Below the pieces are notes generated by a model. That model was not told the DNA's origin and did no database searches. It saw only the letters and a program-made list of their open reading frames with translations. Source: Spirochaetia bacterium (GTDB taxonomy: Bacteria > Spirochaetota > Spirochaetia > UBA9216). From it: a DNA stretch of 64,000 bases. Positions 16,886 through 42,102 of this stretch are shown piece after piece. The position numbers were made by a program, and so were the translations under genes. Where the stretch lies: contig OY776510.1 in NCBI GenBank assembly GCA_963675665.1, positions 4,288,001-4,352,000 of the forward strand. The letters are read 5' to 3'. Each line of letters begins with the position of its first letter. The first letter of the stretch is position 1.

Positions 16886-17128
16886 CTAATAATCAATGCC
16901 GGCAGCCTGTACATTATCGGGATCAAAAGCGTGACAGGGAACAACTCCGTAAACCATATTGCAATGCGGACATTTATCTTCGAACGTTGACATTTCAAAT
17001 TCTTTTCCGCATTCGATACATTTGATTTCAAAGGGAACCGGCATCATTTGCTCTGCGAAGCCCATCATCCTTACTTTATCTACCGTTTGTGTTCCGTTTT
17101 CAAAAACTCCGCTGCATCCTTCATGCAT
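16886..17128 (-). CDS. Small Cys/His-rich zinc-ribbon protein
   Basis: MHEGCSG..CIECG..CPHC..PCHA; start overlaps the ATPase stop. Confidence 0.75.
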   Translation of the reverse strand: MHEGCSGVFENGTQTVDKVRMMGFAEQMMPVPFEIKCIECGKEFEMSTFEDKCPHCNMVYGVVPCHAFDPDNVQAAGIDY

Positions 17129-18158
17129 AATTTTCTCCTGATGTTTCGATTTTATCGAGAATTTCGCCCTTTCTGAGCTTTTTACGATATGACAGAAGGG
17201 TTTTATCCATCTCTTCAAGTGTAGTTAAAATCTCTCTTTCTTTATCTGTTGTTTTAATGATTTTATGGATACCGCCGTTTTTTATAACAATTCGCTTGTC
17301 GCCCATTAAGGCAAGAATGGGATCATGTGTTGCCATGAGAACAACCTTGTCCTCGGCAATCAGAAGATCAAGAGCCTGTTTACGGTCAATTCCTGCATTT
17401 TCAATTTCATCAATCAATATAATCGGCGATTTGCTCAGGATTGCAGTATCAGCGATCATCAGCGCCCGCGACTGGCCTCCGCTAAGGCTTGTAATCGGCG
17501 TATCCGGAGAGAATCTTTCTCCGGCAAGCAAATTAGCGTTTTCTATTATCCTTCCGATCACTTCGCTCCTGTTTGACACAAGACGGCTCTCGGCATGAAG
17601 CTCAACAAATTCGTACACAGACAAATCCATCACAAAGTTCATGTTCTGGGAAATCTGGGCAACAAGTTTATCTGATGTTGAAAACCGCCACTTGTTATCA
17701 GGTTTGTCATTATTGATCAGAATACTGCGCGATGTCGGCGTATCGTTCTGGGCTACCCATTCTATATCTCCAAGCAGCCTGCTTTTACCCGAGCCGGTAG
17801 GACCTACAATACAGATAATTTCACCCTGTCTTATTTCAAACCTATCAAAATTCTCCTTATTACCGGATTTGTCGGTCCCGGGAAGAATTGTAACAGATTG
17901 AACAACATCTTCATGATTTCCAAGAAACACATTCATTTGATTGACATATTCAGCTATCTGCCTGAAATGAAGTTCAATATCTATAGCATTATCTTCAATT
18001 TCATTTTCATCAAAAGCTGCAAAATATTCTTCGAGAGTAAGATGATCCTTGTTTCTGATGTCCAGGTTGTTATCATTAAAATAAGTTAAAATGAAAGGGT
18101 AATCCGCCAGCAGTTTCTCAATCTTTCCGAAACGCACATCCTGGTTACTTAATCTCAT
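17121..18158 (-). CDS. ABC-type ATPase with N-terminal DUF1858-like region (no adjacent permease)
   Basis: GPTGSGKS, LSGGQ, LIDEIEN, ATHD. Confidence 0.85.
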   Translation of the reverse strand: MRLSNQDVRFGKIEKLLADYPFILTYFNDNNLDIRNKDHLTLEEYFAAFDENEIEDNAIDIELHFRQIAEYVNQMNVFLGNHEDVVQSVTILPGTDKSGNKENFDRFEIRQGEIICIVGPTGSGKSRLLGDIEWVAQNDTPTSRSILINNDKPDNKWRFSTSDKLVAQISQNMNFVMDLSVYEFVELHAESRLVSNRSEVIGRIIENANLLAGERFSPDTPITSLSGGQSRALMIADTAILSKSPIILIDEIENAGIDRKQALDLLIAEDKVVLMATHDPILALMGDKRIVIKNGGIHKIIKTTDKEREILTTLEEMDKTLLSYRKKLRKGEILDKIETSGENYA

Positions 18159-18167
18159 AATAATCCC

Positions 18168-18860
18168 CTATTCATCCATCTTTATTTTACGGATATTACC
18201 GGCCTGATAATCTTCACCTATTCTGGTTTCACCCAGGCAATAGGAACAAAGGGCCGACGGCATTGGAAATCTCAGCTCTTTTCCGGTGAGCGTTTTCAAG
18301 TCTTCTTTTTCATCATAGAGAAGAGTTGAAAGTTCAAAACTGCCCTGTCCTGTCAGCCCGTTTATGTTCATAATCGTTGCGCCCGGGTTTACCGTATTTA
18401 CACGGGAAGCAAAAACCTCCCGCTCGGCCTGTGAAACAATATCGCCTTTTGTGATAACGACTATATCAGCAGATTTAAGCATTGGACCGATTTTCTTGGG
18501 GGTGTTTATTCCGCTCAGATTATCAATTATACAAACTGCCATAATTCCTTTTATGTAGGGAGAACAGCGGTTGCATAAACCCGCTGATTCGCTGATTAAA
18601 ATATCGAATTTATTCTCCACTCCCCATTTGGTAACTTCCTCGATATTGCTGATAAAATAATGATCCGGGCATAATGCGCCGGAAAGCCCTTTCTTAACAG
18701 GTATTCCGGCTTTTTCATACAGAATGTCGTCATCCGTATAGAGACAATCGAATTTGGCAACTGCCGTTTTCAAACCTCTTTTGTTCAGAGATTCGATGGT
18801 TTTAAGAATAACAGAAGTCTTTCCTGATGAGGGCGGACCCGAAATTGTAATCAGATTCAT
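18168..18860 (-). CDS. HypB/UreG/CobW-like G3E GTPase
   Basis: GPPSSGKT, LCPDH, ESAGLCNRCSP, TKGD, C-terminal CSYC. Confidence 0.85.
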   Translation of the reverse strand: MNLITISGPPSSGKTSVILKTIESLNKRGLKTAVAKFDCLYTDDDILYEKAGIPVKKGLSGALCPDHYFISNIEEVTKWGVENKFDILISESAGLCNRCSPYIKGIMAVCIIDNLSGINTPKKIGPMLKSADIVVITKGDIVSQAEREVFASRVNTVNPGATIMNINGLTGQGSFELSTLLYDEKEDLKTLTGKELRFPMPSALCSYCLGETRIGEDYQAGNIRKIKMDE

Positions 18861-18863
18861 TGG

Positions 18864-20099
18864 TTAAACCCCAGCCATTACAGATTTGTTAAAAACAGAC
18901 TCACAATGTTTTATCAAAGCGCTTATATCGTTACTGTAGATGTAATCCCATCCAAGCCACATAAACCCGTTTTCATCAGGAAGCCTGTTATCAATTGCCG
19001 GGTTTGTACTAGGGAAAAGCCCGTTATGAGAAAGGATACGACCGACTTCCTCCGATGCAAAGAAATCAATTACCGGCTGAAGTTTCCTGCTTTTTTCTTT
19101 TTTAGACAGCATAAAGATCGGACTGATAATTGCACCGTCTTTTGGCCATACAGCTTTCATGGGCCCGCCGTCTTTCACCATCTTTGTAAAGAAATTAGGC
19201 ATTATCGTAACAATCGGACGGTTCTCTTTCTTTCGATCGCTCCTGACCATCTGGGACGGATGAAGTGATTCCAGCAGGTTGCGCCCCAGTTTTGCAACAC
19301 CTTCATCTCCGTACATTTTATGAATATTCAGAAGGATACCGTTGAATAAATCAAAATCGCCGACAGGAAGAGAAACCCTGTTATTAAAAACCGGATCCAG
19401 AATATCTTCCCAGCTTTGAGGAACAGGCAAATCGCCCAGTTCCTTCATATTTACCAGAAAGACAGCCGGCACAACTCCGATTACGGAATAATGTTTTTCG
19501 GGATCCTTCAATCCGCCATCTTTGAACGACGAGTTGATTCCGGTAAATTTGACAGTATCCGCAAACACTCCCTGTTTTTTAAAACGGCCTATCAGATTTT
19601 TATCAAAAAACATATCAAATCCGGCTGATATAAAAAGATCCGGCAGCTCTGTGGCGTCATTTATCCCTTTTATATTATCTTCAACCCAGGAAAGACCCAT
19701 GGAAGCAGCTTTCAGTTCATGTTCTATAGTTACATCATTTTCCAGGGAATAAGATTTTATAAATCTGTTGAAACCTTCCAGCAGAGGAATACGAACCGGG
19801 CAAGGCAGCAGCCCGACGACCTTCAGGGCTTCTGCTCCTGCTGCTTTTTTATTGGCGGAAAGTGTTTCATCAACAGAATTATTCCCGGATTCGATTGCTG
19901 CAATTAAAAGTCCGGCAAAGCTGTCGTAATCCAGTTGTTTCAGTATTAAAGAGGTCCTGAGTGAAATTGTCTTTCCGAATTCTTCCCGCTTTTTTTCATC
20001 TCCCATATGGTTGAATCCATTGGAAGTAAATACAGGAATGGTTTCAGGGTATTTTTCGGCAATCTCAAAAAGTGTGCTGTCTTTTTCAAAATAATTCAT
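18864..20099 (-). CDS. DUF1858-like domain fused to a substrate-binding-protein fold, no signal peptide
   Basis: N-terminal TLFEIAEKYPETIPVF; LLPCPVRIP; PQSWEDILDP and WPKDGA typical of PotD/AfuA-like SBP folds. Confidence 0.75.
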   Translation of the reverse strand: MNYFEKDSTLFEIAEKYPETIPVFTSNGFNHMGDEKKREEFGKTISLRTSLILKQLDYDSFAGLLIAAIESGNNSVDETLSANKKAAGAEALKVVGLLPCPVRIPLLEGFNRFIKSYSLENDVTIEHELKAASMGLSWVEDNIKGINDATELPDLFISAGFDMFFDKNLIGRFKKQGVFADTVKFTGINSSFKDGGLKDPEKHYSVIGVVPAVFLVNMKELGDLPVPQSWEDILDPVFNNRVSLPVGDFDLFNGILLNIHKMYGDEGVAKLGRNLLESLHPSQMVRSDRKKENRPIVTIMPNFFTKMVKDGGPMKAVWPKDGAIISPIFMLSKKEKSRKLQPVIDFFASEEVGRILSHNGLFPSTNPAIDNRLPDENGFMWLGWDYIYSNDISALIKHCESVFNKSVMAGV

Positions 20100-22476: not shown

Positions 22477-23793
22477 CTACTGGCGCAACAGTCCAATCGT
22501 CATTGCATCAACAAATTCGGGTAATTCGGGTGTTGTTCGGCCTGAGACTATATTGTGATCAACAGTTGCCGACCAGTCGGCACAGAATTCCCCACCCTGG
22601 GCTTCAAATCCCGGAACACATGAAATCCAGCCGGTAGATTTTCGTCCCTCTACTATTCCGGCCGCCGCTACAGCATTCGGACCGTGACACATAAAAGAAA
22701 TAACCTTTCCGGCGTCGTTTGCCTTTCTCAGAAACTCAAGTGGGTATCCGGCTTCTATCATATTCCATGGGCAAAAAGCGCCCGGAATCATAAGTCCGTC
22801 GAAATCATCCATATTCGTATCTTTCAGGTCCTGTATTTTATAAAGGTTATCAGGAATTTCCTGAAGCGGGACGGACATTCCGAAATTACCCTGAACCACA
22901 TCAAGGCCCAATAGCGGCGGACGGGCGCGCTTGCAGCCGGTGAATGTGCCTAAAAGTATATTGGCGCCGCGGTGCATGAATTCCAGCACGGGAACGGCAA
23001 TTTCGAAATCTTCAAAATCCCAGCCGGTTATCAGCATCATCCGCTTGCCTGCCAGAATTCCCTTTCTCGGGTCCTTGTAGCCGGGAGAAAATTGCCTGCA
23101 CAGAGCACTTACAAACTCAGGAGTATCTATCGTATCCTTTGCTGTCAAAATCCGGTCATCCATAACAACCCTGGTATTTAACTTGAAGTTTGATGTCTTT
23201 TTAAGAATATAATCAACCTGCTCATTTCCGGTGCAGTCTTTTCCAATAGTGAGCCCTACGGTCAGCATCGGAATGATGCCCCCTCCTATTCCGCCGATAA
23301 CAGCACCGTTGGAGTATGCATTTTTGAGAAGATCCTGTACTTCTTTTTCGGTGCACATGATATCTCCGGAAGGTCCGCCGGGAATAATTATTGCATCATA
23401 GTCTTTATAATCAGCGTCGTATAATGATTTTGATGAATCCGCCTTCTCTCCTCCTCCTACCGGAATCGGATCAACGGTAAGGCCCCACAGCCCTACTACA
23501 CCTTTTGTACGGATGTTCGGCCGGGTCCATTTCCAGGTTACCCTGTCTACCAGCAGAAACTCCAGCTTGCCTCCGAGCTCTCCGATATATGAAGCTATAT
23601 AATAAGCCTGAAAATCGCTGAATTCAGTAGCCACAACACAGCCGATCTTCTTTCCGGCCAGGGGACCAACATCCTTGGTACATCCGCCTTTCGGCCCGGT
23701 CCACAGGGTAGCGCCGTCTTTTTGCTGTATATCTATCCCTCTTGATTTTATAACTTCTATATAATCTGCAGACGGATCATAATTATTTCCCAT
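22477..23793 (-). CDS. Two-domain DJ-1/PfpI-family protein
   Basis: Domain 1 EFSDFQ..YDAIIIPGG; domain 2 DFEDFE..FDGLMIPGA..MCHGP; GGAGA SD. Confidence 0.85.
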   Translation of the reverse strand: MGNNYDPSADYIEVIKSRGIDIQQKDGATLWTGPKGGCTKDVGPLAGKKIGCVVATEFSDFQAYYIASYIGELGGKLEFLLVDRVTWKWTRPNIRTKGVVGLWGLTVDPIPVGGGEKADSSKSLYDADYKDYDAIIIPGGPSGDIMCTEKEVQDLLKNAYSNGAVIGGIGGGIIPMLTVGLTIGKDCTGNEQVDYILKKTSNFKLNTRVVMDDRILTAKDTIDTPEFVSALCRQFSPGYKDPRKGILAGKRMMLITGWDFEDFEIAVPVLEFMHRGANILLGTFTGCKRARPPLLGLDVVQGNFGMSVPLQEIPDNLYKIQDLKDTNMDDFDGLMIPGAFCPWNMIEAGYPLEFLRKANDAGKVISFMCHGPNAVAAAGIVEGRKSTGWISCVPGFEAQGGEFCADWSATVDHNIVSGRTTPELPEFVDAMTIGLLRQ

Positions 23794-23828
23794 CAAATCT
23801 TCTCCTTTGATTATCTTATAAAATAAAG

Positions 23829-23844
23829 CGCAATTATCATGCCA
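23829..23844 (-). promoter_or_regulatory. sigma54 (-24/-12) promoter of the DJ-1/PfpI gene
   Basis: TGGCATGATAATTGCG = GG-N10-GC, about 35 nt upstream of the ATG. Confidence 0.85.
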
Positions 23845-24119
23845 TTGAAAATGGATTTACAAATTTTTATAAACATGTAAAAAACAGGATACTCTAAAAA
23901 ACTGAAGCTTTCAGAGATTTATCCCGGATTTACAGAACGCTTATTTATTTCCTGATAAAGAAATAAATAAATTCCAGGGCATCTCTGACAACCCCGATTC
24001 AGGGATATCAGATATACGCGAATTATAATCATCTAAAATTTTAATATTATTTGATACACGGCAGGAGTTCCGGTTTTGTTCATTTTTTTTACATTCACGC
24101 ATTATTCTGTGTAAAAAAT

Positions 24120-25949
24120 CTACACAGGGACAGGATGCTCTTCATTTTGCGGCAGCATAATTATAAAGCGGCATCCGCCTTCAGACCTGTTCTCAACATT
24201 AATAGTCCCGCCGCTTTTGGTTATTATCGAATAGCACAATGAAAGCCCCAATCCTAGATTTCGGGAATCGGTGCTCTTTGTTGAAAAAAACGGGGTAAAA
24301 ACAGAATCCATCTTGTCAGCAGGCAACCCGGGACCATCATCCTCAATTGCAATTAATACCGAGCTTTTCCCGTCCTTTACGTTTGTCGAGGTAATAATTC
24401 TGACTTCACCGCCGTCGCCTGTTGCTTCACAGGCATTTTTAATGATATTTATTAACACCTGCCTCAGTTCATTTTTATTCATCTTCACAATAAGCGGATC
24501 TTCAAGTTTTTCAACACAAAAATTAATCTTTCCGTAAATATTATTTTTCCGGATCAGTTTAATATAGCTTTCCACCAGGCTGTTAACGTCTATTTCTCCG
24601 GCATTAATCATATTGGAATCGGAAAAGGTTACCAGGCGGGATACAATCTGTGAAATAAAATCAAGCTCTTCCTTTACATCGGCAAGAGGATCAACAAGAC
24701 TTTCATCATCGACCCGGGTACGAATATAGCGAATATAATTCATTACAATCTCAAGGGAATTATTAATCTCATGCCCCACCCCGGCGGCCAGCAAGCCTAT
24801 TGAAGAAAGATTTTCCGCCAGCATCATTTTCTTCTGCAGAGTATAATAATCCGTAACGTCCTCAATAATAATGATATGACCGACAATTGCAATTCCGTCA
24901 TATATGGGCACTATTTTCATTGTGTTCATTGAATGGTGCTCACCGATAGTAATAGGTACATCAAAAAATGAATGGCTCTCCTTTGATTCAAGGGAAGCCA
25001 TAATTAATTTATAAACTTCATTTTTCTGTTCGGCGAAAATAAAACTGATGTTCTTATACAGGTAATTCTCCCTGACTATTTCAAAATGACGTTCGAATGA
25101 TCGGTTTGCCATTATAATTTTATGACCCGGATCTATTACTGCAAGATTAATCGGAAGGGTATTTAGAATAGCCTCATTAAAACGCAGGAAATGATAAAAC
25201 TCTGACTGGAGTTCGGAAAGCTTTACCTTTTCCACAGTTTCAGTGTATGCAAGCCTGATCATGTTAACCTTGTCGATACCGTCAACCGGTCCGGAAAAAA
25301 GGACTTTCCCGTTACGCAGAATACTGACTTTATCTGCAAAATCATAAAGTTTTTCTATATCATGGGTTATAAAAACAATTGCTGTTCCCTTTCTTTTTAG
25401 CCTGTGAAAAACACCGGTAAAAATCCTTGAGAATTCCGAGCCCAGTTTAATAAAAATTTCATCGAGTACCAGAATATCCGGAGTCTTTTCAATCTGCCGG
25501 ATAAGTTCAACAGCTGTATACTCGGAAGATTTAAGCTCTTTAAGCTTCCGGTTTAAATCAATTCTGATACCGTACTTTTCCAATAATTTTTCAGCCTGTT
25601 TATAGACCCTTCCCCGCGGCAGGAAAAAACCTTTATATGCGATATCGTTATCGAATAACAGATATTCCCATACCAGAAAATTATCATTGGCGACACGATC
25701 CTGATGAACCATACAGGCTTTAATTTGCCCTTTTTTTACAATATGTCCTGATGAAGGCTTCAATACTTCGCTGATAATCTTGCCGAGCGTGGATTTACCG
25801 CAACCGTTCTCACCCAGAACCGCATGAATTTCACCGCGACGGACTATAAAAGTAAGATTTGACAGAACGTCGTTATAGTTGGTGCTGAAACTGATATTCT
25901 CAAGCCTCAGGATTTCATTTGCGGATCCGTCAGCCTTCGCTGATTCCAT
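24120..25949 (-). CDS. Cytoplasmic histidine kinase with N-terminal ABC-ATPase domain (ABC-PAS-HisKA-HATPase)
   Basis: GEIHAVLGENGCGKSTL, ILVLDE, FITHD, ADKVSILRNG; PAS-like ILNTLPINLAVID..MANRSF; H-box GVGHEINNSL; N box QVLINIIKNA; DDGPG, PFFSTK, GLGLSL; no TM segment. Confidence 0.88.
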   Translation of the reverse strand: MESAKADGSANEILRLENISFSTNYNDVLSNLTFIVRRGEIHAVLGENGCGKSTLGKIISEVLKPSSGHIVKKGQIKACMVHQDRVANDNFLVWEYLLFDNDIAYKGFFLPRGRVYKQAEKLLEKYGIRIDLNRKLKELKSSEYTAVELIRQIEKTPDILVLDEIFIKLGSEFSRIFTGVFHRLKRKGTAIVFITHDIEKLYDFADKVSILRNGKVLFSGPVDGIDKVNMIRLAYTETVEKVKLSELQSEFYHFLRFNEAILNTLPINLAVIDPGHKIIMANRSFERHFEIVRENYLYKNISFIFAEQKNEVYKLIMASLESKESHSFFDVPITIGEHHSMNTMKIVPIYDGIAIVGHIIIIEDVTDYYTLQKKMMLAENLSSIGLLAAGVGHEINNSLEIVMNYIRYIRTRVDDESLVDPLADVKEELDFISQIVSRLVTFSDSNMINAGEIDVNSLVESYIKLIRKNNIYGKINFCVEKLEDPLIVKMNKNELRQVLINIIKNACEATGDGGEVRIITSTNVKDGKSSVLIAIEDDGPGLPADKMDSVFTPFFSTKSTDSRNLGLGLSLCYSIITKSGGTINVENRSEGGCRFIIMLPQNEEHPVPV

Positions 25950-27258
25950 ACTTCTCCAGTTTGTTATAAAGTGTTTTCCGGCTCATTTTCAGAACTTCAG
26001 CCGTTTTTGTTTTATTATTGTCATTTTTCAGCAGAGTATTCAGAATCAGCTGTTTCTCCATGTCTTCCCTGATATTATCAGTTTGCTTTTCCGGAGTACT
26101 TCTGCGATGCTGCATTCCGAGCGGCAGGTCTTCGATTTTTATTTCTTCATCCGCAGCAACTGCACAAGCATACTGAATGGTGTTTTTCAGCTCCCGGATA
26201 TTTCCGGGCCATGTATATTCAAGAAAAAGATCTATCACCTCGGCAGATAATTTGCGTTTTTTAACCGTGCCTACACAATAATCGCTGATAAAATATTCGG
26301 ATAGTACAGGAATGTCCTCTTTGCGTTCCTTCAGCGGCGGCAATTTGATAACGGCAGTACTGAGCCTGTAAAAAAGGTCTTCCCGGAATTCCTTCCGTGC
26401 GATCATCTGTTCAAGGTTTTTGTTTGTTGCGGCAATGAAACGGACATCAACGGTAATCGTTTTATTACCACCTATCCGCCTTACTTCCTTGTTCTGCAGT
26501 GTTCTTAGAATCTTTGACTGAATTGCCAGCGACATATCGCCTATTTCATCCATAAACAGATTGCTGCCGTCGGCACGCTCGAATATTCCTTTATAATCTG
26601 AATTGGCCCCGGTATATGCACCTTTGTTATGACCGAAAAGTTCATTGTCAAGGATACTTTCCTGAAATGCCGCGCAGTTGATTTTTTGCAGACAGGATGT
26701 GCTTCTGGGAGAAATATCATGAATATAATCTGCCAGAACTTCTTTACCGGTTCCGTTTTCACCCAGAATAAGAATAGGCAAATCAGTAGCGGCAAGCTTT
26801 CTCGCCCTGGCCAGCGTTTTTATCAGATCCGGATTTTTTGTAATAAAATCTCCATGCTCATTACATACAGCAGTATCAACAGTATTGGTTGATTCGTTAT
26901 CGGCTATTGCCGATTCAACGACCCTCAGCAGCAGATCAAAATCAACCGGTTTTTGTATGTAATCGTAAGCTCCGATTTTTATCGTATCAACAGCGGATTC
27001 AATCGAACCGTATCCGGTAATCATTATTACCGGTATGTTTTTCTTCAGAGACATAATGTCCCGTAAAAGCCTGCGGCTGTCTTCATCACCAAGCATCAGA
27101 TCAAGCAGAATGAGATCAAAATTATTCAGTTTAACGCTTTCCAGCGCAGTTCTGCTGTCGTTTGCCCAAGAAACCTTGTACCCCAGCTGTTCGAAGTTTA
27201 CAGCCAGACTCTTGCATACCTTAACCTTGTCGTCAATTATGAAAATATTCCTGACCAT
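25930..27258 (-). CDS. NtrC-family sigma54-dependent response regulator (REC-AAA+-Fis HTH)
   Basis: IDD..LLDL REC; GENGTGKE; ELFGHNKGAYTGA; FMDEIG; FREDLFYRL; WPGNIREL; TAEVLKMSRKTLYNKL. Confidence 0.95.
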   Translation of the reverse strand: MVRNIFIIDDKVKVCKSLAVNFEQLGYKVSWANDSRTALESVKLNNFDLILLDLMLGDEDSRRLLRDIMSLKKNIPVIMITGYGSIESAVDTIKIGAYDYIQKPVDFDLLLRVVESAIADNESTNTVDTAVCNEHGDFITKNPDLIKTLARARKLAATDLPILILGENGTGKEVLADYIHDISPRSTSCLQKINCAAFQESILDNELFGHNKGAYTGANSDYKGIFERADGSNLFMDEIGDMSLAIQSKILRTLQNKEVRRIGGNKTITVDVRFIAATNKNLEQMIARKEFREDLFYRLSTAVIKLPPLKERKEDIPVLSEYFISDYCVGTVKKRKLSAEVIDLFLEYTWPGNIRELKNTIQYACAVAADEEIKIEDLPLGMQHRRSTPEKQTDNIREDMEKQLILNTLLKNDNNKTKTAEVLKMSRKTLYNKLEKYGISEG

Positions 27259-27416
27259 AATGTTACGTAATTATACAAACCTTCCTTTTAAACCGTATAA
27301 AATGGTGACACTGAATTATCAGGTTTAAACCCATATCTGTCAAGCAGGTATAATAAAACGACTTATCTCATTACAACACAATAATTTATATTTACACGTT
27401 TCGGCCGATAGCTCTT

Positions 27417-27432
27417 TGGCACGTCGATTGCT
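27417..27432 (+). promoter_or_regulatory. sigma54 (-24/-12) promoter of the dehydrogenase-GRE operon
   Basis: TGGCACG-TCGA-TTGCT, matching the consensus TGGCACG-N4-TTGCW. Confidence 0.9.
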
Positions 27433-27472
27433 TGTGTATTTTTGGTATAATAAATTAAATCGGAGGCTGATT

Positions 27473-28510
27473 TTGATTCCTGAAACAATGAAGGCTGGCG
27501 TGATGACGGAGCCTGGTAAAATAACTGTTCAAGAAGTAAAAACTCCTGAAATCGGAGATAATGATGTATTAATAAAGGTCAGGTACTGCGGTATCTGCGG
27601 AACCGACGTGCATATATTCAACGGCGTATACAGCAGAGATAAACTGCCGCTTATCCCCGGGCATGAATTTGTCGGAGAAATTGCCGCAATGGGAAAAAAC
27701 GTTACCAGGTATAAAATCGGCGACACAGTTACTGCCGATATAAATCTCAGCTGCGGATCATGCATCTACTGCCTTCAGAATAAACCGCTTTTATGCAGCG
27801 AGATGAGTCAGGTGGGAATTCATCAGAACGGCGCCTTTGCAGAATATGTCGCATTTCCGGCGGAGAGCGTTGTAGAACTGAATCCGGATACACCTAAAGA
27901 AAAACTTGCACTCATAGAGCCTGTATCATGCTGCGTAAGAACATTCCGGATGGCGGAGATATCTTTCGCAAAAAGCGTTGCAATAATAGGCGGCGGAAGC
28001 ATGGGCCTTCTTCTTTTACAAATGGCAAAGCTTGTCGGAGCCGCTCCGGTCATCATGGTGGCCCGCCGACAGGAAACCCTTGACCTTGCAGTTGAAATGG
28101 GCGCCGACGACACCGTGCTTATCGGCAATGGAGATACCGACAGGCTGAAAGAACTTACCGGAGGCCAGGGAGCTGATTTTGTTATCGAAGCAGTCGGCAG
28201 AAAAGAAACCTATGAGAAAGCATGTGAGATGCTGGGACCCGGCGGAAGGCTGGTTGCGTTCGGGATAATGGAACAGGGTGAAAAAACGCCGTTTGAGTTT
28301 TTTAACACTGTTTTGCTGGAACAAAGCTTAACCGGCTCATGCGCCGGAATGGGAATCGACTTTCATGAAGCAAAAAGGCTTGTTGAGTACGATCGTTTCG
28401 ACCTGGGCAGGTACAGCAACAATATTGTCCCGCTTGAGCGGATTGCCGACGGTTTCAACATGGCGATAAACGATAAAACGGTTTTGAAAGTAATCATTGA
28501 TATGGGATGA
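27473..28510 (+). CDS. Zn-dependent (MDR) polyol/sugar-alcohol dehydrogenase-like
   Basis: CGICGTD, PGHE, CGSCIYC..C, GGGSMG; TTG start 6 nt after GGAGG. Confidence 0.9.
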   Translation: MIPETMKAGVMTEPGKITVQEVKTPEIGDNDVLIKVRYCGICGTDVHIFNGVYSRDKLPLIPGHEFVGEIAAMGKNVTRYKIGDTVTADINLSCGSCIYCLQNKPLLCSEMSQVGIHQNGAFAEYVAFPAESVVELNPDTPKEKLALIEPVSCCVRTFRMAEISFAKSVAIIGGGSMGLLLLQMAKLVGAAPVIMVARRQETLDLAVEMGADDTVLIGNGDTDRLKELTGGQGADFVIEAVGRKETYEKACEMLGPGGRLVAFGIMEQGEKTPFEFFNTVLLEQSLTGSCAGMGIDFHEAKRLVEYDRFDLGRYSNNIVPLERIADGFNMAINDKTVLKVIIDMG

Positions 28511-28546
28511 TCCCTTAAAGTCAATCAGGATACAGGAGATAAAAAC

Positions 28547-29566
28547 TTGAAAGCATTGGTATGGACCGGCGCGGATCAGTCGGCAATTAGAGAAATTGAC
28601 AAACCTGAAATAAAAGAGGATGAAGTTCTGCTTAAGGTAAAGGCAACCGGCGTATGCGGAACCGATCTTACAATATTCAAGGGATATTTTCCCGCCCACA
28701 GGGCTGTTGCTCCCATGGCGCTCGGCCATGAAATGAGCGGGGTAATAGCCGAAAAAGGAAATGCCGTAACAGGCTATGAAGTCGGAGACAGGGTTATTGC
28801 CGATCCGCTGATTTCATGCGGGACCTGTTATAATTGCGTTAAGGGGCTCAGGCACATATGCAAAACGCTTGCCCTGTTCGGGGTGGACAGCGACGGATCC
28901 TTCGCTGAATATGTAAAGGTAAAAGCAGAAAAACTGTACCGGATACCCGATACGCTGTCATTTGAGAAAGCCGCGCTTTTTGAACCGCTCGCTGTCGCCG
29001 TACACGCAGTCAGGCGCTCAAAACTTGCAACCGGGGATACGGTAATGGTAATCGGCGGCGGGCCAATCGGAATTCTTATTGCAATGGTAGCCGAAACTGC
29101 CGGTGCCAGAACAATCATCGTATCCGAGATCCAGCAGTCGCGTCTGAATCTTCTTAATGAATACGGATTTAAAACAATCAATCCTGCAAAAATTGACAAT
29201 GAATCAATTATCAATAATTATTATGAAGGAGCAGGCCCGGAAGTTGTATTTGAAGTAACCGGAACAGCAGGCGGTTTTCAGGCGGCTATTGATATTGCCT
29301 GTTACAGGGGCCGCATCATGGAAGTCGGAGTGCCCAAAGGCGAGCAGACAATGGATATCCGGAAAGGCAACTTCGGTGAACTTGAAATTTTAGGTTCGCG
29401 TGTTTACGAACCGGTTGATATCAAAACAGCACTTAAAATAATTGATGATGCCCGTTATGACTGGGACAAACTGATCACAACATTTCCGCTGGAAAAGGGA
29501 CCGGAAGTTCTTACCGAACTTGCAAGCGGTAAAACATCATTAATGAAAGCAATCTTCACGTTGTAG
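28547..29566 (+). CDS. Zn-dependent (MDR) polyol/sugar-alcohol dehydrogenase-like
   Basis: GVCGTD, LGHE, CGTCYNC..C, EPLAVAVHA, GGGPIG; TTG start with GGAGA SD. Confidence 0.9.
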   Translation: MKALVWTGADQSAIREIDKPEIKEDEVLLKVKATGVCGTDLTIFKGYFPAHRAVAPMALGHEMSGVIAEKGNAVTGYEVGDRVIADPLISCGTCYNCVKGLRHICKTLALFGVDSDGSFAEYVKVKAEKLYRIPDTLSFEKAALFEPLAVAVHAVRRSKLATGDTVMVIGGGPIGILIAMVAETAGARTIIVSEIQQSRLNLLNEYGFKTINPAKIDNESIINNYYEGAGPEVVFEVTGTAGGFQAAIDIACYRGRIMEVGVPKGEQTMDIRKGNFGELEILGSRVYEPVDIKTALKIIDDARYDWDKLITTFPLEKGPEVLTELASGKTSLMKAIFTL

Positions 29567-29581
29567 TAGGAGGAATGATAA

Positions 29582-31993
29582 ATGGCGATAGAAGTAAGAT
29601 TAACCGATTCAGATGCAGCTAAAGCAGTCAAATGGCGCACTTCAAAGCTTAATGAAGAAGTACTGGCTGTCGAACCTGAAATCTGCATAGAACGGGCAAG
29701 GCTTGTTACCGAATCATATAAAAAAACCGAAACCGAACCGATGATAATCCGCAGGGCAAAAGCGCTGGCAAACGTTCTTGAAAATCAGACGATATTCATT
29801 CATAAAGATCAGCTTATTGCCGGTGTACAGGCAAGTAAACTCCGTTCATCTCCGCTTTTCCCTGAAACCGAAGCAAACTACCTGAAAAAGGAAATCGATC
29901 TCTTTGAAAAAAGGGAACAGGACAGACTGATTGTTCCGGCCGACGTAAGAAAAGAACTTCTGGAAGAAATTCTTCCGTACTGGAAAGGCAAATGTATAGA
30001 TGAGATTGCACTCGCTGCAATGCCCGAAAAGACCCGCGAGATTGCAATGCTCGAGAACCAGATTTTCTCGGTTGGAATACACCTTACCGGTTCAATCGGC
30101 CATATAATAGCCGATTACGACAGGGTAATTGCAAGAGGTTTTCTCGGCATCAGGGAAGACGCTGAAAATTATCTCAAAACCGTTGACTTTTCAGATCCTG
30201 AAAATACATCAAAGCTTCATTTCTATAAGGCTATCATAATCGTGTGCGATGCAGTGATGGCCTGGGGCAAACGGTATGCTGTTCTTGCGCGGGAAGAAGC
30301 AATAAAAGAAACGGATGAACGTTGGAAAAAAGAACTTGATACAATGGCCGACATCTGCGAACGTGTTCCGGCCCTTCCGGCCAGAAATTTCCGCGAAGCC
30401 GTGCAGGCTTTCTGGTTCTCACATCTGCTTTGTTATATTGAGCAGAACGGACTTGCTGTTTCGGTAGGGCGTTTTGATCAGTTTATGTACCCTTATTACA
30501 GGCAGGACATTGATAACGGCGCCATCACCAAAGATGAAGCCCAGGAGCTGTTGGAATGCCTGTGGATTAAATTCACCGAGGTTATGAGAGCATACGATTT
30601 TGAATGTGCAAAATATTATGCCGGATTTTCAATCTCCGAAAACCTTGTTCTGGGCGGAGTTACCCCGGACGGAAAAGATGCGACCAACGAACTTTCCTAC
30701 ATGTGTCTCGACGCAGAATCCCACACAAGCCTTTCGCAACCTAATCTCGCAGTTCGTGTTCACAACAATATGCCGGAGGATTTCTTCCGCAAAGCAGTCA
30801 GGCTTGCATCAACAGGCCGGACAAAACCCGAGTTTTTCAACGATTCAGTTGCGCTTCAGTCGCTGCTGTCGCTCGGTGTCCCTTTAAAAGATGCCCGCGA
30901 CTATTCTATTTCCGGATGTGTGGAAGCAGTTCCGCCGCATACAAACGGAATGACAAACGCAGCAATGTCGAATATTGCAAAGGCGCTTGAGCTTGCTCTT
31001 AACGACGGGGTATGCAGACTTACCGGAAAGCAGATAGGACCGAAAACCGGCGACCCGCGGGAGTTTAAATCCATTCGCGAGTTGCTTGATGCATTCAAAA
31101 ACCAGGTTGCCGCATATGTAAAAGAGATGGTGACCGCGCTTCAGTTTATCGAAAAAACCCATGCTCAATATTATCCGCTGCCATACTTCTCGCTGATTAT
31201 GGACGACTGTCTTGAACTGGGCCTGGATATAACCGAAGGCGGCGCCCGATATAATTATACAGGTCCGCAGGCGGTAGGTCTGTCGGATGTTGCTGATTCG
31301 CTGGCGGCCATAGGAAAATTCGTCTTTGACGACAAGAGCATTTCAATGGATCAGCTTCTTAAAGCTCTTAACGACAATTTTGAAGGAAGCGAAGAACTCC
31401 GCCAGCGTCTTTCGAACAAAGCGCCGAAATACGGCAACGACGATGATTACGTCGATTCACTCGCCGCTGAAGTTGTAAAAATCTACTGCGAAGAAGTTGA
31501 ACAGTATAAAAACACCCGCGGCGGCGTTTACCGTCCGGGCGTATATTCGGTATCTGCAAATGTTCCGCTGGGAATGCATGTCGGTGCAACACCGAACGGC
31601 CGGTTCAGCCGGGCGGCGCTCGGAGACGGCGTAGGACCCGTTCAGGCCTGCGATATAATGGGCCCCACCGCGGTTACCCGCTCCGTTGCAAAACTAAATC
31701 ATGAACTGGTAACAAACGGGACCCTTCTGAACCAGAAATTCAGCCGGGATCTAATGAACTCAGACGAAGGCAAACAGGGACTGGGCGATCTAATCCGAAG
31801 TTACTTTGATCTCGGCGGATGGCATATCCAGTTCAATGTAGTCGACGCAAAAGTATTGCGTGAAGCGCAGACCAAACCGCAGGACCACAAAGACCTTATT
31901 ATCAGGGTTGCCGGATACAGCGCTTTCTTTGTTGAACTCGACAGCAAGGTACAGGATGACATCATTAACAGAACTGAACAAAAGAAATTCTAA
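29582..31993 (+). CDS. Glycyl radical enzyme, PFL2/dehydratase-eliminase-like, substrate unknown
   Basis: 803 aa; GRFDQ; Cys loop SGCVE (single Cys, so not PFL); Gly loop IRVAGYSAFF; AGGAGG SD. Confidence 0.95.
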   Translation: MAIEVRLTDSDAAKAVKWRTSKLNEEVLAVEPEICIERARLVTESYKKTETEPMIIRRAKALANVLENQTIFIHKDQLIAGVQASKLRSSPLFPETEANYLKKEIDLFEKREQDRLIVPADVRKELLEEILPYWKGKCIDEIALAAMPEKTREIAMLENQIFSVGIHLTGSIGHIIADYDRVIARGFLGIREDAENYLKTVDFSDPENTSKLHFYKAIIIVCDAVMAWGKRYAVLAREEAIKETDERWKKELDTMADICERVPALPARNFREAVQAFWFSHLLCYIEQNGLAVSVGRFDQFMYPYYRQDIDNGAITKDEAQELLECLWIKFTEVMRAYDFECAKYYAGFSISENLVLGGVTPDGKDATNELSYMCLDAESHTSLSQPNLAVRVHNNMPEDFFRKAVRLASTGRTKPEFFNDSVALQSLLSLGVPLKDARDYSISGCVEAVPPHTNGMTNAAMSNIAKALELALNDGVCRLTGKQIGPKTGDPREFKSIRELLDAFKNQVAAYVKEMVTALQFIEKTHAQYYPLPYFSLIMDDCLELGLDITEGGARYNYTGPQAVGLSDVADSLAAIGKFVFDDKSISMDQLLKALNDNFEGSEELRQRLSNKAPKYGNDDDYVDSLAAEVVKIYCEEVEQYKNTRGGVYRPGVYSVSANVPLGMHVGATPNGRFSRAALGDGVGPVQACDIMGPTAVTRSVAKLNHELVTNGTLLNQKFSRDLMNSDEGKQGLGDLIRSYFDLGGWHIQFNVVDAKVLREAQTKPQDHKDLIIRVAGYSAFFVELDSKVQDDIINRTEQKKF

Positions 31994-31994
31994 T

Positions 31995-32915
31995 ATGTCG
32001 GATACAGGGGTTATCTTCAACATCCAGCGTTTCTCACTGCATGACGGCCCCGGAATGCGGACAGTCCTTTTTCTGAAAGGCTGTCCTCTTTCCTGCCTGT
32101 GGTGTTCCAACCCCGAGTCTCAGAACCCGGATGAAGAACTGCTTTATTACAGGAACAAGTGCATCCTCTGCGGAAGTTGCGTCAAAGCCGCCGGAGGGAA
32201 CGAACTGGCGGCAAGCGGAATCTCACTTTCCGAAGACGGGATTGTTTTTGACCGGGAAAAACTTGATGTAGCTGCAGCAGCTGAAACCTGTCCGACCGGA
32301 GCGCTGGAGATAATTGGCCGAAAAACCAGCGCCGAAGAAATTATGCCGATGCTGATGCGCGACATTACATATTTCAGGCGCTCCGGCGGCGGAATTACGC
32401 TTTCAGGAGGAGAGCCGACGATACAGACAGGGTTCTGCCGGGAGCTGCTGCTTCGGCTACGTGAACTGGGAGTGAATACAGCTGTCGAGACATGCGGGTA
32501 CCGAAAGTGGGATCCTTTTCTGCGCGCGATAGAACCGGCAGATTTGATTTTATACGATCTTAAAGCAGCAGATTCTGAAGTGCACAAATCCGGCACAGGA
32601 GTCGGCAACGAAATTATACTTGAAAATTTTCTGAAGCTTGTGCCTGTCAAGAATTTGACGGCCCGAATTCCGGTAATACCCGGATTTAATGCGACTGATG
32701 AGAATTTCAAACAGACTGCCGCTTTTATTCTGAACAGCGGGTTCAAAGGCGAAGTCCATCTTCTACCCTATCACAGTTACGGTTCAGGAAAGTATAAAGC
32801 GATGCAGCAGGAATACCAACTTGCGGGGACAGAACCTCCGACCGAAGAACAACTGAAAAAATGGGCCTATGAATTTGAATCAGGAGGTCTGACAGTTAAA
32901 ATACACAAGCACTGA
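31995..32915 (+). CDS. Glycyl-radical enzyme activating protein (radical SAM)
   Basis: HDGPGMRT, CPLSCLWC, ferredoxin-like insert, SGGEP, VETCG, LLPYH. Confidence 0.95.
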   Translation: MSDTGVIFNIQRFSLHDGPGMRTVLFLKGCPLSCLWCSNPESQNPDEELLYYRNKCILCGSCVKAAGGNELAASGISLSEDGIVFDREKLDVAAAAETCPTGALEIIGRKTSAEEIMPMLMRDITYFRRSGGGITLSGGEPTIQTGFCRELLLRLRELGVNTAVETCGYRKWDPFLRAIEPADLILYDLKAADSEVHKSGTGVGNEIILENFLKLVPVKNLTARIPVIPGFNATDENFKQTAAFILNSGFKGEVHLLPYHSYGSGKYKAMQQEYQLAGTEPPTEEQLKKWAYEFESGGLTVKIHKH

Positions 32916-32932: not shown

Positions 32933-34576
32933 TCAGAGGCCCTTTTCAAATACGATCTTGCCGTCAATCATGGTAAGGTCAACCTCTACCCTGTTCAGTT
33001 TGCCTGTCGGGATCGAGGTGATATCTTCAGAAAGAACAATCATATCCGCCAGTTTTCCTTTTTCAAGGCTCCCTTTGATATCTTCTTCAAAAGACAGATA
33101 TGCACCGTGCAGAGTAGCACAGCGAACAGCCTCGGCAACAGAAATACACTGCGTCTGATCCAGCTGAATTTCATTTGTCCTGTTATACCGGTTAACCGCT
33201 CCGTCTATAGTGTGAATCCCTATAGGTCCGGACGGGTAATCGCTTGCAATAGACACCTTGATTCCGGCATCAAGCATGCTCCTGAGGGCAATAAGATACT
33301 TCATCCGCTCGCCGTAAAAACGGGCGTAATTGGCGCCTATTGTGGTGAGCATCCCCGGATTCACAGTCGGGCATATATTCATCTTTGCCATTCGATCTAT
33401 AAGGTCCTGGTCGCATAGCGTGCAGTGCTCTATGCGGTGCCGCAAATCGGGTCTCGGGTTATCTTTAAAGGCTTTCTCATAACCTTCAACCATGAATTCC
33501 ACAGCCAGGTCTCCTATCGCATGCGCAGTTGCCTGGCATTCGGCGTCGTTGATCTCTTTTATATATTCTGTCACCTCTTCACGTTCCCAGCCTCGTTCTC
33601 GCGGAAGTTCAGGATTATGACTGTAAGGCTCACGGGTTGCGCATGACGGGCCGCCGGATCCGCCGTCTATCATAAATTTGCAGGAGCCTATCCTGAAATG
33701 TTCATCTCCGAGCCCGGTAGTAAAACCGAGCGATAAAAAGTGAGCATTGTCTTCCTTTGAGAAGGGTTTACCAAAGATACTGTGAAGAAGCATATATGAA
33801 CGAATTTTAAACTTGCGCTCGCGGCAAAGCTTCTGCATTATATGGTATGAAGGCCTGTCGCACTCGCCTGCGTCATGCACCGAAGTAATTCCTGCGCGCA
33901 GTGCAATATCATGTGATTTCATGGCGGCTTTAGCCTGCTGTTCCTCGGTGTAATCTACCATCCCCCACAGCTTGAAATGGGTATGCCCCCGAACCATTCC
34001 CGTCAGCTTTCCGTCTATAACCTCAACTTCGTCTTCAGGATATTTTGCGGCGTCTTCCGGTCCGTAAACGTCCAGGTATTCAAGGGCTTTGGTATTATAC
34101 ATGCAGATATGTCCGCCTCCGTGCATACAGTGGACCGGGTTGTCGGGCGCTATTGCATCAAGTTCTTCTATTGAAGGGTGTCTTTTTTCGGGAAGCAGCA
34201 GCGGTTCATAACCCATCATCGACACCCATTGCCCGGGTTGCTTCAGGGCAACCGCTTTTTTCAGCAGGTCAAGCATTTCGGCAAGACTCCTGCAATTTGA
34301 CGCTGAAGTATTAATCATTGCAGAATCAAGTTCGGTCCCGATAAATCCTGCAAGAATCGGATGAAAATGAGAATCGATTATGCCGGGCATCAGTGTCCGA
34401 CCTGCAAGATCTATCTGTTCGGTTTTATCGTCGATATATTCATCAAGACCGTCGTTTGTTCCGACATAAACAATCCTGTTGCCCTTCACGGCAAGAGCTT
34501 CCGCTATTACGTCACCGGCGTTAACAGTAAGAACTCTTCCGTTTCTGAAAACCGTATCAGCAAATCCAAGTCTCAT
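32933..34576 (-). CDS. Amidohydrolase_3 family protein (YtcJ/NfdA-like)
   Basis: PGIIDSHFH, KFMIDG, HAIGD, RIEH, SDYP, KGSLEKGKLAD; start MRLGFAD. Confidence 0.9.
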   Translation of the reverse strand: MRLGFADTVFRNGRVLTVNAGDVIAEALAVKGNRIVYVGTNDGLDEYIDDKTEQIDLAGRTLMPGIIDSHFHPILAGFIGTELDSAMINTSASNCRSLAEMLDLLKKAVALKQPGQWVSMMGYEPLLLPEKRHPSIEELDAIAPDNPVHCMHGGGHICMYNTKALEYLDVYGPEDAAKYPEDEVEVIDGKLTGMVRGHTHFKLWGMVDYTEEQQAKAAMKSHDIALRAGITSVHDAGECDRPSYHIMQKLCRERKFKIRSYMLLHSIFGKPFSKEDNAHFLSLGFTTGLGDEHFRIGSCKFMIDGGSGGPSCATREPYSHNPELPRERGWEREEVTEYIKEINDAECQATAHAIGDLAVEFMVEGYEKAFKDNPRPDLRHRIEHCTLCDQDLIDRMAKMNICPTVNPGMLTTIGANYARFYGERMKYLIALRSMLDAGIKVSIASDYPSGPIGIHTIDGAVNRYNRTNEIQLDQTQCISVAEAVRCATLHGAYLSFEEDIKGSLEKGKLADMIVLSEDITSIPTGKLNRVEVDLTMIDGKIVFEKGL

Positions 34577-34589
34577 TTCTATCCATCCT

Positions 34590-36443: not shown

Positions 36444-36447
36444 TTTA

Positions 36448-38613: not shown

Positions 38614-38614
38614 A

Positions 38615-41606: not shown

Positions 41607-42102
41607 GATCCCGCTCCAGTCTTTCGAGTACTTTCTGCAAATCAACAATAAAAATCTCCTGTTCATGCAGGGAAATGGAACCCAGAAAAAAACCCTCCTC
41701 GCCCGTATCCTCGGTTATAAGATGGATATTCTTTTCAGTCAGCTTTGCGATTTCAAGAATCTCGGAAATAATAAATGCAAGCTGATCATTCTCACGGTTG
41801 ATTACCATAAAAACTGCCGATTCATTTCGCTCCTGCTCAAATAGCGCGTTAAGATCAAGCACAGTATACGGCTCTCCATGCCTGTTTATAAAACCCCTGA
41901 CATATGGGGGCACAAACGGTACATAAAATAAAGGATAATCCAGTATTATTTCTCTAATATCGTTTGCATAAAGAGCATATTTTTTTCCGGCCACCTGAAA
42001 AACTATAAATTTTTCTATTCTTTCATCTCTTACAATCCTGTCTTTTTTATCCAGTGACTGTTCTTTCTCAATACGCTCAAGCAATTCGTCATTATTCATC
42101 AT
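41596..42102 (-). CDS. cheW: CheW adaptor
   Basis: FIVFQV..YAL..IREI..VPFVPPYVRGFINRHGEPYTVLDL. Confidence 0.9.
   Translation of the reverse strand: MMNNDELLERIEKEQSLDKKDRIVRDERIEKFIVFQVAGKKYALYANDIREIILDYPLFYVPFVPPYVRGFINRHGEPYTVLDLNALFEQERNESAVFMVINRENDQLAFIISEILEIAKLTEKNIHLITEDTGEEGFFLGSISLHEQEIFIVDLQKVLERLERDLGA

Follow-up and report, generated by a model that had tools for sequence, protein, structure and literature searches.

Sensor kinases usually read the outside of the cell through periplasmic or membrane domains of their own, and transporter-coupled sensing, as in the Bce, Pst/PhoR and Uhp systems, is to our knowledge found only with separate proteins. In the MalK-MalT and PstB-PhoU-PhoR systems, the nucleotide-binding domain (NBD) subunit of an importer is the hub that reports transport activity to the regulator. 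Here we describe a gene in a stretch of 64,000 nucleotides from a Spirochaetia bacterium (contig OY776510.1, positions 4,288,001 to 4,352,000; hereafter the window), which is well supported as encoding a sensor histidine kinase without transmembrane (TM) helix whose input domain is derived from the first NBD (NBD1) of the CUT2 family of ATP-binding cassette (ABC) sugar importers. Whereas in MalK-MalT and PstB-PhoU-PhoR the NBD is a working subunit of the transporter and the regulator is separate, here the NBD lies covalently within the kinase, and probably does not power transport.

The concept of a histidine kinase that reads an ABC transporter is shared with the flux sensing of Bce modules, where BceS is unable to sense by itself and follows the conformational activity of the BceAB ABC transporter (PMC4513084, PMC10314905). 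There, BceS is an intramembrane kinase of two TM helices, separate from the permease BceB to which it binds, within a Gram-positive, exporter-type system for peptide resistance, whereas the window kinase is TM-less and carries the NBD itself. The combination that defines a Bce-type module, an intramembrane kinase with a BceB-type permease, is absent here, where the kinase has no TM helix and the neighbouring transporters are CUT2 importers. The recruitment of an ABC import component as a sensor is also seen in XylFII-LytS, which controls the xylFGH ABC operon (PMC8050422), and in LuxP-LuxQ, ChvE-VirA and TorT-TorS. These systems recruit a periplasmic binding protein to a membrane kinase, and the window kinase differs from them in recruiting a cytoplasmic NBD; neither 'ATPase' nor 'nucleotide-binding domain' occurs in the review cited. 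None of the systems compared (Bce, XylFII-LytS, MalK-MalT and PstB-PhoU-PhoR) has an NBD inside the kinase. In the full-text literature searched, which had subscription-only papers and database architecture pages outside its reach, we found no description of an ABC-NBD/histidine-kinase fusion, and the statement in a preliminary description of the window that no characterised kinase has this architecture holds within the searchable literature. Two papers considered as possible reports of such a fusion (PMC2853384 and PMC12688256) were irrelevant to it.

At the protein level, the window kinase resembles the PAS kinases NtrB, AtoS and ZraS in the alignment and fold of its C-terminal transmitter, in its REC-AAA+-HTH_8 partner and in the adjoining sigma-54 promoters. 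Unlike them, it has no TM or periplasmic domain, and its N-terminal 235 residues form an ABC NBD that none of those kinases carries; judged by its sequence, it is not an AtoS or ZraS ortholog. With the CUT2 ATPases (RbsA, MglA, XylG, AraG, YtfR, LsrA) it shares the N-terminal half, the Walker A and B motifs, the Q- and H-loops, an NBD1-type signature and a genomic tie to permease and binding-protein genes, whereas it has a single NBD without the NBD2 that is the sole source of the LSGGNQQK signature, has lost the Pro/Thr of the D-loop and is fused to a kinase. In this regard, it departs from the CUT2 ATPases in three defining features, namely the signature, the tandem NBDs and the equivalog scores, and therefore should not be filed as one of them.

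Architecture, extent and ancestry of the kinase family

The kinase is the 609-aa product of one uninterrupted open reading frame (ORF; 24120-25949). The preliminary description, which was made from the letters alone, had proposed a continuous ORF with ABC, PAS, HisKA and HATPase domains in this order, no TM helix and an N-terminal region of ~230 residues of the CUT2 NBD1 type. All of this stood, with the minus strand as an addition: the order of domains was confirmed by Pfam, NCBIfam and an AlphaFold2 (AF2) model, and the CUT2 assignment by the NCBIfam alignment, the nearest relatives, a tree and the pattern of motifs. Pfam located ABC_tran at residues 29-164 (6e-17, above the cut-off) and HATPase_c at 492-602 (2.3e-23), together with weak matches of PAS models at 258-367 and a HisKA match at 386-444 that fell below the cut-off. 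In NCBIfam, residues ~4-249 aligned with the N-terminal halves of YtfR, LsrA, MglA, XylG and AraG (113, 108, 94, 92 and 92 bits, none of them reaching the equivalog cut-offs of 586-850), and residues 247-604 with AtoS (206 bits against a cut-off of 646) and ZraS (127 against 479). The AF2 model, with 32 family members in the alignment (mean pLDDT 79.6, pTM 0.42), comprised a confident NBD at residues 8-235 (pLDDT ~90), a disordered linker at 237-257, a PAS domain at 258-365, the DHp helices at 366-441 and the catalytic (CA) domain. Foldseek matched the C-terminal 370 residues to YF1 (4gcz), WalK, ThkA, NifL and ZraS, and the N-terminal part to isolated ABC NBDs, and no chain among the solved structures spanned both the NBD and the kinase parts. 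No TM helix was detected by 19-residue hydropathy (maximum of 1.78 at residue 344), as the AF2 model places the most hydrophobic 19-mer in two beta strands of PAS.

The Walker A stretch originally quoted, GEIHAVLGENGCGKSTL, covers residues 39-55, with GENGCGKST at 46-54, and the remaining motifs could also be placed: MVHQD at 80-84, the Walker B ILVLDE at 159-164, ITHD at 194-197 and ADKVSILRNG at 205-214, as well as the altered D-loop DEIFIKL at 163-169, from which Pro/Thr are gone. The degenerate signature LKSSEY is likewise present (139-144), but it is not peculiar to the kinase, because it was inherited from NBD1, whose signature is degenerate too: the NBD1 of the neighbouring CUT2 ATPases are also without LSGGQ. 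Each kinase contains one Walker A motif, against two in each neighbouring CUT2 ATPase. The phospho-acceptor H393, within the H-box LAAGVGHEINN, is invariant in the family alignment and in 132 of 132 full-length representatives of the family.

The possibility that two genes had been joined in error, by assembly or annotation, is practically out of the question, and nothing was found in its favour. A contig from an independent run (X3, record 9) shows 15 substitutions over positions 24000-27500 without a gap, the NBD-PAS junction is crossed with zero differences by a piece from another run (X6), and contigs of runs X1, X6 and X7 cover the stretch in parts only. Moreover, the same uninterrupted architecture occurs in 26 full-length matches from 14 of 31 related genomes (the window genome included) and in 131 library clusters, so that neither an artefact nor a singleton, the two outcomes that would have undone the original proposal, is found here. 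By tblastn, the 5.15-Mb genome of the window (G000) itself contains eight full-length copies with mutual identities of 26-37%. In a collection of 5.8 billion proteins, the best 33 rows, with the window's own protein among them, cover at least 86% of the query, and 32 of the 33 carry both PF00005 and PF02518, whereas coverage is at most 62% from row 34 on. A profile search against 1.84 billion cluster representatives gave more than 400 bits for all the best 150 matches listed, which comprise 131 single full-length proteins of 585-646 aa, 18 fragments and one protein of 851 aa; the family therefore has at least 131 full-length clusters at 50% identity, and is larger than the 150 matches listed. 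Going by record titles, members occur in Spirochaeta, Spirochaetales and Spirochaetia metagenome-assembled genomes (MAGs), as well as in one MAG labelled candidate division KSB3 and another labelled Treponema denticola. Two further scans returned few members: one of a genome collection, keyed on the H-box alone, hit mostly ordinary PAS kinases (family members at 3 of 80 loci), and one of metagenomes with a 12-row alignment spanned the NBD-PAS junction at 7 of 80 loci. This is a large kinase family without any characterised member.

In the ESM Atlas the family forms a cluster of 62 members. Other clusters combining ABC_tran and HisKA were recorded there as leads at a feature score of 0.82, one of 515 aa (136 members, mostly Spirochaetota) and two of 826 and 852 aa (64 and 166 members, mostly Actinomycetota, the 852-aa one with GAF_2). 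The Actinomycetota clusters suggest that NBD-kinase fusions arose or spread beyond the family of the window.

Regarding the origin of the input domain, outside the family residues 1-250 come closest to ABC ATPases of ~500 aa annotated for simple sugars, ribose, galactofuranose or inositol. In a quickly built maximum-likelihood tree comprising 22 kinase NBDs, together with 19 NBD1 and 19 NBD2 sequences from the CUT2 ATPases encoded nearby and a single outgroup on a very long branch, the kinase NBDs fell into one clade (SH-aLRT 99) and the NBD2 domains into another (98), with the NBD1 domains as an unresolved comb around both. Kinase NBDs share 25.2% identity with NBD1 and 19.2% with NBD2. The consensus of CUT2 NBD1 has a canonical Walker A, the Walker B Glu and the H-loop, with a non-canonical signature (LS...QQ), whereas that of NBD2 has a dead Walker A (GAGRT), no H-loop His and the canonical LSGGNQQK. 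The kinase domain follows the NBD1 pattern (Walker A Lys, Walker B DE, H-loop and degenerate signature), so that in a homodimer two good P-loops would face two degenerate signatures. Its C-terminal end, IDKxNLIRLAYTQ, is the equivalent of the linker between NBD1 and NBD2, so NBD2 has been replaced by PAS-DHp-CA, with the linker as the fusion point. Repeated local recruitment of NBD1 was rejected: besides the single clade in the tree, the NBD1 encoded at the same locus resembles a kinase NBD no more than the NBD1 from other loci do (25.2% in both cases), which indicates, in terms of sequence comparison, a single ancient fusion followed by duplication.

Conservation over the 132 full-length representatives differs sharply between motifs. 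In the transmitter, H393, D537 and G541 are kept in all 132 and N501 in 131. In the NBD, the Walker A Lys and the Walker B Asp are each found in 126 and the Walker B Glu in 115, against 99 for the Q-loop Gln, 86 for the H-loop His and 78 for an A-loop Tyr or Phe; at neither Gly position of the signature is Gly among the commonest residues. The retention of the P-loop while the H-loop His has eroded points to a domain selected for ATP binding and conformational change rather than for hydrolysis and turnover. The clade of the window kinase keeps K52, Q83, D163-E164 and H196. NBD identity among paralogs is ~29-30%, compared with 43.5% for true NBD1 domains, and that of PAS is 27%, whereas in orthologs both domains are 58-82% identical; by these comparisons NBD and PAS are both paralog-specific.

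Linkage to CUT2 operons and sigma-54 promoters

All seven other paralogs in the window genome have an overlapping sigma-54 regulator gene just upstream and adjoin a CUT2 operon with a Peripla_BP_4 binding protein, a two-NBD ATPase of ~500 aa and a BPD_transp_2 permease, which is divergent in six cases and co-directional in one. Elsewhere, the sigma-54 regulator precedes the kinase at every locus for which the upstream side is present, and the CUT2 arrangement occurs at 13 of 15 loci in 11 other genomes (by blastp labels, with loci L017 and L019 completed by tblastn), at three loci from the genome collection, including that of the KSB3-labelled MAG, and at five evaluable metagenome loci, two further loci being too short to judge. 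Overall, CUT2 genes adjoin the kinase at 28 of 31 evaluable loci, an outcome in agreement with the linkage to CUT2 permeases and binding proteins that the preliminary description had put forward for checking. Only the window locus and its two orthologous loci (L008 and L009) depart from this; all three share the synteny of DJ-1, kinase and regulator, followed by two divergent alcohol dehydrogenase (ADH) genes, a glycyl radical enzyme (GRE) gene and its activase gene. Four loci that at first seemed incomplete, one without ATPase (L017), one without permease (L019) and two free of CUT2 genes (L027 and L110), were found by tblastn to hold CUT2 genes masked by antisense ORFs; since all of them have these genes, an argument for docking based on a vacant permease was dropped.

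In a genome-wide sigma-54 scan with TGGCAC-N5-TTGCA (11 scored positions), 320 sites matched at nine or more positions (1.24 per 20 kb) and 40 at ten or more. Sites lie before the neighbouring operons of paralogs L001, L003, L005, L006 and L007, and before non-transporter catabolic genes at L004, and the scan gave no site for L002. The genome also contains rpoN. As the family is large and uniform, reaches eight copies in one genome and is paired one-to-one with sugar importers and with sigma-54 regulators, it probably serves free-living spirochaetes and some other lineages as a main route of carbohydrate gene control.

A CUT2 operon for the window kinase was found at a distance. At position 12241 of locus L023, the scan detected a sigma-54 site before an operon that lacks its own regulator and lies 60 kb away from the kinase in the same genome. 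Phylogenetic footprinting of the DJ-1 upstream regions of the three orthologous loci defined a motif, TTACACA-N14/15-TGTRRAAAAA, and the pattern TTACACA-N13-16-TGTRRAAAA occurs exactly twice in 5.15 Mb, at window positions 24085-24114 and upstream of the L023 operon, compared with 1, 0, 1, 0 and 0 matches in five shuffles. The motif was seen at six of six expected places, including both places in both relatives, a count tempered by the fact, unfavourable to the reading developed below, that it was defined post hoc on four of the six instances and that only the last two were predictions. A strict palindromic form of the motif was discarded, giving a single match and performing no better than in shuffles. 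The ADH promoter region carries a related element with the consensus TTATACA-N-YGTATAAAA. Moreover, the binding protein of the L023 operon (L023:8630-9610) has orthologs of 88-92% identity in three genomes of the same genus that have a kinase ortholog (G001, G004 and G005), and none at E<=1e-60 in G003, which has no kinase ortholog. In G001 and G004 the whole operon of CUT2, transketolase and aldehyde:ferredoxin oxidoreductase (AFOR) genes lies in the kinase cluster, 11-13 kb off, with its sigma-54 site and motif. As the operon is contiguous in these relatives and shares the motif, the window system fits the CUT2 rule of the family. In G000 the kinase locus and the transporter operon are separated by a block that contains chemotaxis genes, and its absence from this place in G001 and G004 suggests an insertion or rearrangement in the window genome.

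That the kinase and the regulator work together and control the neighbouring sigma-54 operons is well supported, and the pair very probably controls the CUT2-transketolase-AFOR operon as well. Taken as a whole, the regulon looks like one uncharacterised sugar or polyol route, with uptake, two dehydrogenases, a radical enzyme of dehydratase type, transketolase, aldehyde oxidation and DJ-1, for which the kinase family offers a handle.

How the signal may enter the kinase

We tentatively favour, with somewhat less than even confidence, the idea that the kinase is a sugar sensor docked on a permease. Docking is placed first because the permease is a specific partner of NBD1 (by inference, NBD1 comes with no specific partners other than the permease, NBD2 and ATP), because of the CUT2 linkage and the predicted interface described below, and because another kind of kinase is found in the same position: at L186:5202-8733 (G000:C1:611201-614732), a conventional, periplasm-facing dCache_3-HAMP-HisKA-HATPase_c kinase of 739 aa and its sigma-54 regulator lie by another sigma-54-dependent CUT2 operon, as if the NBD took the place of an extracytoplasmic sensor. 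In this mechanism, a soluble dimeric kinase of the NtrB/AtoS kind and the upstream sigma-54 regulator would switch on three sigma-54 promoters, those of the divergent ADH-ADH-GRE-activase operon, the DJ-1/PfpI gene and the CUT2-transketolase-AFOR operon. In the kinase dimer, the two NBDs would take up positions on the coupling loops of the dimeric cognate CUT2 permease, displacing the transporter ATPase; once a binding protein loaded with sugar had docked on the permease, these NBDs, glued by ATP, would close as they do in a normal importer, and this tweezer movement, passed on through the short linker into the PAS and DHp helices, would turn the kinase on. Such a relay is modelled on the C-terminal regulatory domains of MalK. 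The NBD would act here as an ATP-binding conformational relay and not as a motor, because it has no canonical signature and a third of the members have lost the H-loop His. Binding protein, permease dimer and NBD-kinase dimer might then form a dedicated receptor, in which divergence of the groove keeps eight kinases apart among ~40 CUT2 systems, an extension that we consider possible rather than probable. If the docking mechanism is true, the kinase would sense an extracellular signal without a membrane segment of its own, by means of a hydrolysis-impaired NBD1 that replaces the motor subunit. It would also represent a covalent and genetically compact form of transporter-coupled sensing and a clean system for the mechanical readout of NBD closure.

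The preliminary description had suggested docking on an ABC permease encoded elsewhere, to be examined by an AlphaFold-type complex with a permease of the same genome. A concrete candidate is now at hand in the L023 operon, and the docking itself is predicted on mixed evidence. The complex of the L023 permease (alignment of 23 CUT2 permeases) with kinase residues 1-245 scored 0.67 (0.67, 0.68 and 0.46 in separate runs), against 0.01 for the best of three controls; a mark at the 0.67 level is reached by 116 of 157 solved complexes and by 2 of 215 mismatched pairs, a calibration that is rough here, as custom alignments were used. At least 82% of contacts recur between runs, with partner pLDDT of at least 79. 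At the interface, permease residues 189-215, which include the coupling loop GGNxxxxxLSG (201-215) and the invariant G204, N206 and G214, meet NBD residues 80-112, that is, the Q-loop and the helical subdomain, the canonical interface of importers. The domain thus still looks like an NBD that docks on a permease, a binding that is predicted and not demonstrated. Another observation on the same surface goes along with this: within the window clade (10 sequences) contact positions are at least as conserved as the rest (64.3% versus 58.4%), as they are in close orthogroups (76 versus 65 and 84 versus 74). On the permease side, the interface has a p-distance of 0.48, compared with 0.64 for the rest of the protein.

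A number of points weigh against docking. As ABC NBD-permease complexes have been solved, the score obtained with the L023 permease may reflect likeness to those structures, although no CUT2 ATPase was found among the best sequence matches in the PDB. Across paralogs no part of the kinase NBD is less conserved than the contact columns (mean pairwise BLOSUM of 0.40 versus 1.58 elsewhere), whereas in transporters the same columns are closer to the remainder (1.99 versus 2.36 in NBD1 and 1.72 versus 2.24 in NBD2). Between clades, identity is 18.3% at contact positions and 32.6% elsewhere, and in deeper orthogroups contact positions trail the rest (71/81, 43/58, 33/55 and 51/58), while the permease loop that faces these columns is nearly invariant. 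Co-variation at the interface was null in 21 kinase-permease pairs (partial r 0.06, permutation p ~0.26), a test of low power. The pattern at the contact positions is compatible either with fast diversification that insulates paralogs from each other or with a groove released from permease docking. Moreover, every linked transporter encodes its own complete two-NBD ATPase, so that no permease stands vacant and the kinase would be a competitor for one; and a system that did no more than regulate the CUT2 operons would be expected to show the linkage just as well. Within the window clade, finally, the NBD has a deletion of ~13 residues in the beta subdomain before the Q-loop, and Thr or Ser replaces the A-loop aromatic residue.

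Several of these points would be accommodated by a kinase that never approaches the membrane, in which PAS binds the imported sugar or a catabolite and the NBD binds ATP and dimerises, gating the kinase by energy charge or providing a regulated dimer interface. We regard this, the main rival, as rather unlikely, although it deserves serious consideration: PAS is as paralog-specific as the NBD (27% versus 30% identity) and conserved in orthologs, the P-loop is strongly kept while hydrolysis residues erode, as expected of a nucleotide-binding switch, every transporter has an ATPase of its own, and the coupling-loop groove is neither conserved between paralogs nor seen to co-vary. A reading of ATP/ADP, the alternative originally mentioned, carries no sugar information, however, and the CA domain already binds ATP; with eight paralogs beside different sugar transporters, it would be insufficient alone. 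Nor does a cytoplasmic sensor account for the constant CUT2 NBD1 type of the domain, for its retention in more than 130 divergent clusters of a uniform ~600-aa design, or for contact positions that are kept in close orthogroups and mostly hydrophobic at columns 87, 91 and 109, which would be odd in a solvent-exposed groove, and the Pfam matches of the PAS domain that would bind the ligand are weak.

The contact positions can also be read as specificity residues, with 16.7-18.3% identity between paralogs against 33-38% elsewhere and yet 64.3% within the window clade. Such a pattern would be expected if the groove had been re-purposed for another paralog-specific partner, either the transporter ATPase or a cytoplasmic protein, through which transporter activity is read indirectly as in PhoR/PstB/PhoU and MalT/MalK. 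The invariable linkage to CUT2 operons would agree with it as well; on the other hand, the loci hold no further conserved gene, no such partner was predicted and permease docking scored well, and we judge this explanation improbable. Still less credit is given to the NBD as a largely vestigial remnant of the fusion, a scaffold or dimerisation domain without a part in signalling, with the signal entering elsewhere. The absence of the signature in all members, the loss of the H-loop His, the Q-loop Gln and the A-loop aromatic residue, each in a quarter to two fifths of them, and the deletion in the window clade speak for decay, but the Walker A Lys and Walker B Asp persist in 126 of 132 representatives each, the fold is confident (pLDDT ~90), and the full length has been kept in 131 of the best 150 clusters and in the eight paralogs of one genome.

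The window locus and its surroundings

The coordinates of the kinase domains, its neighbours and the candidate control sites are collected in Table 1. Given the position of the promoter-like site before the divergent operon, the true start of the first ADH gene is probably 27474 or 27489. The GRE scores 855 bits with the generic PFL2/glycerol-dehydratase model, and all the substrate-specific equivalogs stay below their cut-offs.

Table 1. Features of the kinase locus and of the distant CUT2 operon (window positions unless a locus or genome label is given)
Feature	Position	Strand	Remarks
Sensor kinase gene, NBD-PAS-DHp-CA, no TM	24120..25949	-	609 aa
ABC NBD, residues 8-235	25245..25928	-	CUT2 NBD1 derivative; K52, Q83, D163-E164, H196 kept
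Linker, residues 236-257	25179..25244	-	pLDDT <50; equals NBD1-NBD2 linker of CUT2 ATPases
PAS domain, residues 258-365	24855..25178	-	Pfam, AF2, Foldseek
DHp/HisKA, residues 366-445	24615..24854	-	phospho-acceptor His393, kept 132/132
HATPase_c catalytic domain, residues 446-602	24144..24614	-	N501, D537, G539, G541 conserved
Cognate sigma-54-dependent response regulator, REC-AAA+-HTH_8	25930..27258	-	Pfam REC-Sigma54_activat-HTH_8; stop overlaps kinase start by 20 nt
Candidate regulator site, conserved footprint TTATACA-N-CGTATAAAA	27271..27302	+	~115 nt upstream of ADH promoter
Sigma-54 promoter-like site TGGCACGTCGATTGCT before ADH-ADH-GRE-activase operon	27417..27432	+	conserved in both orthologous loci
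Zn-ADH	27474/27489-28510	+	first gene of divergent operon (27474..32915)
Zn-ADH, second	28547-29566	+	divergent operon
GRE, PFL2/glycerol-dehydratase family	29582-31993	+	divergent operon
Radical-SAM activase	ORF 31860-32915	+	start uncertain; divergent operon
Upstream motif TTACACA-N14-TGTAAAAAA	24085..24114	-	6 nt past kinase stop codon
Sigma-54 promoter-like site TGGCATGATAATTGCG before DJ-1/PfpI gene	23829..23844	-	sigma-54 scan
Tandem DJ-1/PfpI domain protein, downstream of kinase	22477..23796	-	probable second regulator target
CUT2 ATPase, permease, binding protein, split transketolase, AFOR	L023:4733-12213 = G000:C1:4366732-4374212		Pfam

By blastp labels, the genome contains 89 permease-like and 46 binding-protein ORFs, as well as some ten GRE-like and eight activase-like ORFs. 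A further GRE lies in the CUT2 operon adjoining paralog L001, and radical enzymes tied to sugar importers are unusually numerous in this genome. URO-D-like genes (PF01208) of ~420 aa also recur by kinase/CUT2 loci of several genomes, as seen at L002:5816-7072, L007:11743-13011, L011:6235-7491, L019:2505-3761 and L022:153-746.

Concerning the sigma-54 machinery, the rpoN match (Sigma54_DBD; G000:C1:914059-914541) shows one in-frame TGA within an open frame of 470 aa, and the same genome encodes SelA and a SelB-like GTPase at L006:4250-7343. Six copies of an identical 16-mer lie in a repeated ORF of 517 aa flanked by ORFs of 114 and 99 aa (G000:C1 positions 1725255, 2604998, 2609484, 3531559, 4472874 and 4578117), which is probably an insertion sequence and a source of false sigma-54 matches.

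In the remainder of the window, positions 32933-45840 hold an amidohydrolase, a REC-adenylate/guanylate cyclase, a CheA-like kinase with REC, CheR, CheB and two methyl-accepting chemotaxis proteins, all of them between the kinase locus and its presumed transporter operon. On the other side of the kinase, positions 17121-20099 encode a 345-aa ABC ATPase, a CobW/HypB-type GTPase and a DUF1858 and SBP_bac_6 fusion by Rrf2 and cupin genes, a cluster that is possibly linked to metals and unrelated to the kinase.

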